Positions 2 through 566 of a DNA stretch of 566 nucleotides are shown here, piece after piece. The stretch comes from a phage. The notes beneath the pieces were generated by a model that saw nothing but the letters and a program-made list of their open reading frames with translations, did not search any database and was not told the DNA's origin. Numbering within the stretch: position 1 is the first letter of the stretch; the number at the start of each line of letters is the position of its first letter. The position numbers were made by a program, and so were the translations under genes. The DNA lies in sequence record EF517030.1. One strand, given 5' to 3'.

Positions 2-106
2 TGGGAAAAAGAAAACCCGCCAGTACAAGCAACTGGGTGTATAGCTTGCTTAGAGAAAGATGACCGTTATCCACACACATCTGTAACAAAGAAGCTAACG
101 ATATGA
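2..106 (+). CDS. 5'-partial ORF in frame 2, resembling the N-terminal segment of a T7 gp1.7-like nucleotide kinase; ends prematurely at TGA 104-106 (possibly a frameshift-truncated fragment)
   Basis: Frame 2 is open from the window edge for 34 codons (WEKENPPVQATGCIACLEKDDRYPHTSVTKKLTI) and stops at TGA 104-106. Through ...DDRYPHT it matches my recollection of the T7 gp1.7 N-terminal region; the last 7 residues (SVTKKLT I) look like out-of-frame read-through. The start codon lies upstream of the window. Confidence 0.5.
   Translation, partial: WEKENPPVQATGCIACLEKDDRYPHTSVTKKLTI
89..94 (+). promoter_or_regulatory. Weak Shine-Dalgarno-like purine run (AAGAAG) upstream of ATG 103
   Basis: AAGAAG at 89-94, 8 nt before ATG 103. 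It matches only GAAG of the AGGAGG consensus, so it is a poor ribosome binding site by sequence. Initiation may instead rely on termination-reinitiation coupling at the ATGA overlap (103-106). Confidence 0.35.
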
Positions 107-566
107 CCGAACGTGAACAAGAGATGATTATTAAGTTGATAGACAATAATGAAGGTCGCCCAGATGATTTGAATGGCTGCGGTATTCTCTGCTCCAATGT
201 TCCTTGCCACCTCTGCCTCGCAAATAACGATCAAAAGATAACCTTAGGTGAAATCCGAGCGATGGACCCACGTAAATCACATCTGAATAAACCTGAGGTA
301 ACTCCTACAGATGACCAGCCTTCCGCTGAGACAATCGAAGGTGTCACTAAATCTTCCCACTATATGCTGTTTGACGACATTGAGGCTATCGAAGTGATTG
401 CTCGTTCAATGACCGTTGAGCAGTTCAAGGGATACTGCTTCGGTAACATCTTAAAGTACAGACTACGTGCTGGTAAGAAGTCAGAGTTAGCGTACTTAGA
501 GAAAGACCTAGCGAAAGCAGACTTCTATAAAGAATTCTTTGAGAAACATAAGGATAAATGTTATGC
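103..566 (+). CDS. 1.7: T7 gp1.7-like nucleoside monophosphate (dTMP/dGMP) kinase, C-terminal portion or short form; 3' end runs off the window
   Basis: ATG 103-105 is the first start codon after the frame-1 stop at 61-63. The frame is open for 154 codons to the window end: MTEREQEMIIKLIDNNEGRPDDLNGCGILCSNVPCHLCLANNDQKITLGEIRAMDPRKSHLNKPEVTPTDDQPSAETIEGVTKSSHYMLFDDIEAIEVIARSMTVEQFKGYCFGNILKYRLRAGKKSELAYLEKDLAKADFYKEFFEKHKDKCY. This agrees with my memory of T7 gp1.7 (unverified). T7 is known to make a shorter gp1.7 form from an internal in-frame start. Confidence 0.8.
   Translation, partial: MTEREQEMIIKLIDNNEGRPDDLNGCGILCSNVPCHLCLANNDQKITLGEIRAMDPRKSHLNKPEVTPTDDQPSAETIEGVTKSSHYMLFDDIEAIEVIARSMTVEQFKGYCFGNILKYRLRAGKKSELAYLEKDLAKADFYKEFFEKHKDKCY
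550..554 (+). promoter_or_regulatory. Shine-Dalgarno (AAGGA) for a downstream gene starting at ATG 563
   Basis: AAGGA at 550-554 lies 8 nt upstream of ATG 563-565 (frame 2), embedded in the last codons of the kinase ORF. This is the typical compact phage arrangement in which the next gene's RBS sits inside the preceding gene. Confidence 0.4.
563..566 (+). CDS. Probable start of the next early gene (T7 gene 1.8-like), only 4 nt inside the window
   Basis: ATG 563-565 with good SD spacing. From memory, T7 gene 1.8 begins a few nt before the gene 1.7 stop. The other nearby ATG (558-560) is only 3 nt from the SD and is less likely. It cannot be confirmed without downstream sequence. Confidence 0.3.

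Follow-up and report, generated by a model that had tools for sequence, protein, structure and literature searches.

Gene 1.7 of a T7-type phage sequence with a two-nucleotide frameshift and nine G:C-to-A:T substitutions: reading frames, short form and probable laboratory origin

The gene 1.7 locus and its interrupted reading frame

The window, i.e., the whole stretch of 566 nt from record EF517030.1 that was analysed here, finds its best match over its entire length in T7 8190–8753, with 98.1% identity over 566 nt, which confirms the assignment to T7 gene 1.7 made in a preliminary description of this DNA. In a megablast of 50,697 phage records, many T7 records were matched full-length at 98.1%, none was closer to the window than wild-type T7, and the matched region takes in gene 1.7 together with the opening bases of gene 1.8. 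With respect to T7 gene 1.7, the window extends from codon 9 to the penultimate codon. In wild-type T7 (AY264774, 8167–8757; AAP33921.1), gene 1.7 is a single ORF of 196 codons that reads ...DDRYPHTCNKGANDMTEREQ..., in agreement with the earlier description of gp1.7 as one 196-aa protein. The window and wild-type T7 gene 1.7 share the locus, the DUF3310 core, the internal ATG (Met42) and the overlap with gene 1.8, but the window differs in an insertion of two nucleotides after codon 34, a mutated Shine–Dalgarno (SD) sequence and four substitutions in the short form of the protein. The features of the window are as follows.

2..106, + strand: 5' part of the long-form frame, with native codons 9–34 at 2–79, the out-of-frame residues SVTKKLTI at 80–103 and TGA at 104–106
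72..79, + strand: (CA)4 tract, read from the sequence; T7 has (CA)3 and then C
79..80, + strand: insertion of the dinucleotide AT, a frameshift relative to T7 and all natural relatives, from pairwise and multiple alignments
89..94, + strand: degraded SD sequence of the internal start, AAGAAG in the window and AAGGAG in T7, through G92A
92..535, + strand: nine substitutions relative to T7, namely G92A, C129T, C201T, C218T, C277T, G351A, C352T, C363T and C535T
103..106, + strand: ATGA overlap of the short-form ATG (T7 Met42) at 103–105 with the stop codon of the frameshifted upstream ORF at 104–106
103..566, + strand: short-form gene 1.7 ORF of 155 codons, from the frame-1 translation and alignments, with its stop codon beyond the window
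343..531, + strand: DUF3310 domain (PF11753), Pfam score 79.5 bits against a cut-off of 24, residues 81–143 of the short form
563..565, + strand: gene 1.8 start codon, with the T7 sequence unaltered and within the last bases of gene 1.7; in T7, gene 1.8 lies at 8750–8896

DUF3310 (PF11753) was found by Pfam both in T7 gp1.7 and in the frame-1 product of the window, and it is the conserved core common to gp1.7-type nucleotide kinases. A search for a solved structure of gp1.7 returned none. T7 gp1.7 also contains two Cys-rich motifs (residues 21–35 and 67–79; window 38–84 and 178–216), CIAC...HTC and C...C...C..C, which from their residue pattern look like metal-binding knuckles.

Three-frame translation of the window reproduces the arrangement given in the preliminary description, with frame 2 upstream, frame 1 downstream and a stretch lacking a start codon before the ATG at 103. 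Frame 2 reads WEKENPPVQATGCIACLEKDDRYPHTSVTKKLTI and ends at the TGA at 104–106, while frame 1 has a stop at 61–63, continues as PLSTHICNKEAND without any ATG, GTG or TTG, reaches the ATG at 103–105 and is then open to the end of the window. No further substantial ORF was present in the ORF listing of both strands of the window. The segment DDRYPHT, formerly placed at 62–79, actually occupies 59–79, and 62–79 encodes DRYPHT only.

Positions 1–78 of the window are identical to T7 8190–8267, and in the pairwise alignment of the two sequences the sole gap is one of 2 nt, so that the window and T7 are not identical across 64–106. In T7, CCACACAC is followed directly by CTGTAAC, whereas in the window AT stands between CCACACAC and CTGTAAC; window positions 72–83 read CACACACATCTG. 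Two extra nucleotides do appear in the alignment, as had been proposed, but they had been placed at 80–81, and the insertion is AT at 79–80: removing TC at 80–81 gives back one ORF and the T7 protein but not the T7 DNA, and removing 79–80 is the sole placement that gives back the exact T7 sequence. Since the lesion is a direct alignment difference within a sequence that is 98% identical, chance is not at issue.

The long frame is out of frame after Thr34, and the 196-aa gp1.7 is therefore no longer encoded; the earlier statement that the full-length kinase cannot be made from this sequence holds, with the frame lost after Thr34 and a stop at 104–106. If the region upstream of the window is wild-type, the predicted product from the normal start has 42 aa and 4.7 kDa, consisting of 34 native residues and SVTKKLTI. 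The break falls between His33/Thr34 and Cys35, inside the CxxC...HxC motif, which is in frame in all T7-group relatives examined; likewise, the uninterrupted frame leading from CIAC...HTCNKG to the kinase core is present in all T7-group relatives examined and absent in the window. With regard to the origin of the insertion, the CA tract is a possible slippage context, in which an extra CA unit followed by C→T at position 80 would give the observed letters; such a two-step route and a direct insertion of AT fit the same sequence equally and cannot be separated.

The short form of gp1.7 and its start

T7 reportedly makes gp1.7 in two sizes of about 22 and about 18 kDa, both of them active and with similar kinase activity (work ascribed to Tran et al., 2010 and 2012). 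The calculated masses are 22,184 Da for the long form and 17,711 Da for the short form; a figure of 17,782 Da for the short form lies about 71 Da off the calculated value and was not relied on. Natural gp1.7 versions have lengths of 196–198, 178–180 and 141–155 aa. Those that begin at the equivalent of Met42 include gp1.7 of phage K1F (CAJ29353.1; 155 aa, 616–1083 of the extracted K1F segment), the nucleotide kinase of the Klebsiella phage vB_Kpn15-P3 (148 aa, 701–1147 of the extracted segment) and an ORF of the Klebsiella phage kpssk3 (MK134560.1; 141 aa, 743–1168 of the extracted segment). Since these natural homologues start where T7 has Met42, the short form represents the core of the family and the N-terminal 41 residues to an extension of the T7 group. 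In kpssk3, the annotated CDS kpssk3_010 lies at 878–1168; the ORF at 743–1168 is longer, begins with MTEREIQ and overlaps the end of the preceding gene, and the annotated start appears, judging from this reading frame, to have been set too late.

The short form encoded by the window ends in a codon GC(N), which specifies Ala whichever the third base, and carries the substitutions P80L, P100S, P125S and L186F (T7 numbering). P100S is tolerated, with Ser found at that position in K1F, while P80L, P125S and L186F (window 218, 352 and 535) are at positions that are invariant in all aligned natural homologues (58–94% identity). Because these three residues are invariant, the short form may be inactive or impaired as a dTMP/dGMP kinase even if it is made.

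The ribosome-binding site of the short form is also altered. In T7, AAGGAG sits 8 nt upstream of the internal ATG, and GGAG is kept in four natural T7-group relatives (ESh3, JacobBurckhardt, vB_Yep_15 and WW2). With G92A, the predicted pairing with the 3' end of 16S rRNA falls from −7.9 kcal/mol in T7 to −1.0 kcal/mol in the window. An ATGA overlap of stop and start codons is a classic arrangement for termination–reinitiation, and the short form could still come from termination–reinitiation at the ATGA despite the lost SD sequence. The suggestion in the preliminary description that a short form could be made from the ATG at 103 is therefore sound as regards the ORF, which is open for 155 codons, but the SD sequence is removed by G92A and reinitiation at the ATGA is the possible route.

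The junction of genes 1.6 and 1.7 in K1F is also an ATGA, like that between the remnant and the short form in the window. In K1F and the Klebsiella phages that encode the short form only, however, gene 1.6 provides the upstream ORF and a strong SD sequence precedes the start (AAGGAGGT in K1F), whereas the upstream ORF in the window is the remnant of gene 1.7 itself and the SD sequence is lost. It is conceivable, though rather doubtful, that the frameshift turns gene 1.7 into a K1F-like unit of two cistrons, in which the 155-aa core kinase would be produced by reinitiation and the lesion would be nearly silent for kinase function.

Substitution spectrum and comparison with mutagenised T7

All nine substitutions in the window are G:C→A:T transitions (on the coding strand, seven C→T and two G→A). 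At the nine sites and at the indel, the natural relatives ESh3, JacobBurckhardt and vB_Yep_15, which are 87–90% identical to T7, match T7 throughout. As the T7 state is common to its three closest natural relatives, all ten changes are derived and lie on the branch of the window, with none on that of T7. Natural divergence in gene 1.7 consists of 19–24% G:C→A:T changes, 30–37% A:T→G:C changes and 40–50% transversions, and at the natural rate of about 21%, nine out of nine G:C→A:T changes would be expected by chance with a probability of about 1e-6. The share of synonymous changes (4/9, where randomly placed G:C→A:T changes should give 33%, P = 0.35) gives no sign of selection in either direction and fits neutral accumulation.

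A comparable spectrum is found in the T7 isolates K and P, which together with K115 and P82 (AY264775–AY264778) we take to be the lines reportedly grown with nitrosoguanidine by Bull et al. 2003. Their substitutions relative to T7 compare with those of the window as follows.

Isolate K (AY264775): 423 substitutions, 93% G:C→A:T, 10.7 per kb, purine 5' of the mutated G in 80%, 7 substitutions in these 566 nt
Isolate P (AY264777): 312 substitutions, 93% G:C→A:T, 7.9 per kb, purine 5' of the mutated G in 84%, 8 substitutions in these 566 nt
Window (566 nt only): 9 substitutions, 100% G:C→A:T, 16 per kb, purine 5' of the mutated G in 7 of 9

The window resembles K and P in the dominance of G:C→A:T changes and in a similar density of changes in gene 1.7, but the changes of K and P in this stretch are at other positions, and their gene 1.7 is still one open frame, unlike that of the window. 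The mutated G follows a purine at 7/9 sites of the window against a background of 51%, which for so few sites is not significant by itself (P = 0.10). Its density of 16 per kb exceeds the genome means of K and P; at least nine substitutions are found in 18.5% of the 564-nt windows along the K genome. As for small indels, P has none and K has three, two of which are within genes and in frame, while the other is a 1-nt deletion beside the junction of a large deletion. Small frameshifting indels being rare in K and P, the AT insertion does not seem to be a typical product of the mutagen itself. K and K115 have an in-frame deletion of 3 nt (AAG) in a stretch rich in A close to the gene 1.7 start (T7 8198–8200; window 9–11), which constitutes a second independent indel in this gene. 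Several dispensable genes of K and P are annotated only as 'similar to gene X'.

The same allele was sought in other sequence collections. The insertion was absent from all 138 phage records with a match to window 50–135, where the best identity was 95.3% and a 2-nt gap appeared in every one, and short-segment blastn with window 50–135 and 325–395 gave no phage record with any window-specific variant. The 21-nt junction CCACACACATCTGTAACAAAG had no match in IMG/VR or GTDB genomes; a single JGI metagenome match (Ga0256826_1000156, 4780–4800) was dismissed as a coincidence, its context resembling a bacterial ATP-synthase operon unrelated to T7. A pattern spanning the substitutions at 351, 352 and 363 had no match in IMG/VR. 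For the predicted 155-aa and 42-aa products, no exact match was obtained in about 15 billion proteins, among which wild-type gp1.7 was matched.

A substitution spectrum made up solely of G:C→A:T changes speaks for a laboratory lineage that was mutagenised, and no mutation of the window occurs in K, K115, P or P82, so that the lineage, if mutagenised, would be an independent one. The simplest and most likely reading is that a third T7 lineage from the laboratory, heavily mutagenised and independent of the others, is at hand. This class of change arises alike with nitrosoguanidine, EMS, hydroxylamine and deamination, and nine sites are too few to tell which mutagen acted.

It has been reported that gene 1.7 is non-essential and has been deleted or replaced in viable T7 (PMC9712115; PMC7697293); that the gene is non-essential had also been stated in the preliminary description. 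Since the gene is dispensable in the laboratory, the allele would be tolerated as part of the mutational load. Taken together, we consider it probable that the window belongs to a mutagenised T7 lineage in which gene 1.7 has an AT frameshift, a short form without its SD sequence and the status of a tolerated allele. According to this explanation, the window would be gene 1.7 of a laboratory descendant of T7 loaded with G:C→A:T changes, as by an alkylating mutagen such as nitrosoguanidine; the AT insertion beside (CA)3 would shift the long frame after Thr34, with the normal start giving the 42-aa fragment; the short form, if expressed, would most likely come from termination–reinitiation at the ATGA made by the frameshift; and the disrupted allele would be one part of the mutational load.

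Alternative explanations and significance of the allele

The alternative that deserves the most attention is an error of sequencing, consensus or assembly by which the two bases were added, in which case the phage would make full-length gp1.7 with G38E and four other substitutions. The insertion ends a short CA repeat, where slippage can occur during PCR or consensus building, frameshifting indels are otherwise nearly absent from comparable mutagenised genomes, the allele is in no other public sequence searched, and the consensus of a polymorphic mutagenised population could be chimeric. However, the neighbouring differences form a coherent biological signature, unlike noise, and a 2-nt insertion outside a homopolymer is an unusual error type, atypical of Sanger, Illumina or homopolymer-prone platforms. 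In addition, isolate K also has an indel in gene 1.7, the in-frame deletion mentioned above, and, the gene being dispensable, nothing argues against a real knockout. An indel arising in sequencing had earlier been put on an equal footing with a real one; we rate it below that, as unlikely, and infer that the AT insertion is a real mutation. Far less probable is the view that loss of the long form was selected, either for dideoxythymidine (ddT) resistance or because it lets the phage evade a gp1.7-sensing defence system such as Avs5. Both the frameshift and the loss of the SD sequence are predicted to lower gp1.7 output, the unrelated laboratory clone T7_1t2 (OL964749) has independently lost codons 1–33, and gp1.7 has been reported as an activator of EfAvs5 (PMC11897194). 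The authors of that study, however, could not obtain T7 escape mutants from Avs5 (PMC11897194). The window itself gives no indication of selection, its ratio of synonymous to nonsynonymous changes being neutral, and a selected single knockout would not bring nine extra transitions in 566 nt.

Two further explanations are hardly credible. In one of them, programmed recoding, by −1 ribosomal frameshifting or transcriptional slippage, bridges the two frames and the full-length protein is still made. The sequence A_AAG is slightly shift-prone in E. coli, and it occurs at the frame-2 codon AAG at 89–91, where a single-tRNA −1 slip would enter frame 1 and give ...PHTSVTKEANDM...; but this A_AAG is bare, since positions 40–110 contain neither an XXXYYYZ heptamer nor any homopolymer run of at least 4. 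Moreover, the downstream RNA has a minimum free energy of −5.2 kcal/mol and is no better folded than its shuffles (z = +1.1), no Rfam match was obtained, the two-frame arrangement is found in no relative, the frame being single and continuous in each, and the product would be without the conserved Cys35. Programmed frameshifting or an RNA element was accordingly rejected for the want of a slippery heptamer, structure, Rfam match and conservation. The other explanation, with an equally slight probability, is that of a natural T7-like phage as the source of the window, with gene 1.7 in decay. It is true that natural relatives differ in the N-terminal part of the protein, as the three length classes show, but all ten differences lie on the window's branch and none on T7's, the nine substitutions are exclusively G:C→A:T against about 21% in natural comparisons (about 1e-6), no phage record has any window-specific variant in segments 50–135 and 325–395, and none matches the window better than wild-type T7 does. 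A natural variant was excluded on the polarity and spectrum of the changes.

The allele is an ordinary disrupted version of a known, dispensable T7 gene, already known in kind, and it involves no new biological mechanism. Its biological weight is small, gene 1.7-deficient phages being already known. For annotation, gene 1.7 should here be marked as disrupted or as short-form only, and for provenance, the spectrum made up of G:C→A:T changes only would mark the sequence as mutagenised laboratory T7. Of mild interest is that, through the frameshift, the short-only layout with ATGA coupling known from K1F has arisen again, and the core kinase might still be produced. The allele is also a possible tool for separating the long and short forms of gp1.7. 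If reinitiation does take place, it would be a natural separation-of-function mutant that loses only the Cys-rich N-terminal extension of the T7 group (CIAC...HTC), and it would allow the role of this extension to be probed, e.g., in metal binding, oligomer assembly or recognition by Avs5.

T7 mutants deficient in gene 1.7 are said to be ddT-resistant (work ascribed to Tran et al., 2008). The window is like them in that no functional full-length gp1.7 is encoded, but the known gene 1.7-deficient T7 are complete deletions or selected single lesions, whereas the window keeps the short ORF in a heavily mutated background. Another parallel is the record 'Mutant T7 clone T7_1t2' (OL964749.1), in which codons 1–33 of gene 1.7 are lost through a deletion of about 100 bp that places codon 34 directly after the end of gene 1.6 (about 735–760 of the extracted segment); a literature search returned no paper naming OL964749 or the MZ3752xx series. 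T7_1t2, a laboratory T7, and the window are alike in the loss of the long form and in having the 155-codon short ORF, the only one annotated in T7_1t2, but the SD sequence and coding sequence of the short form are wild-type in T7_1t2, whereas in the window the SD sequence is mutated and four substitutions are present. The deletion junction of T7_1t2 falls within a few bases of the insertion site of the window.
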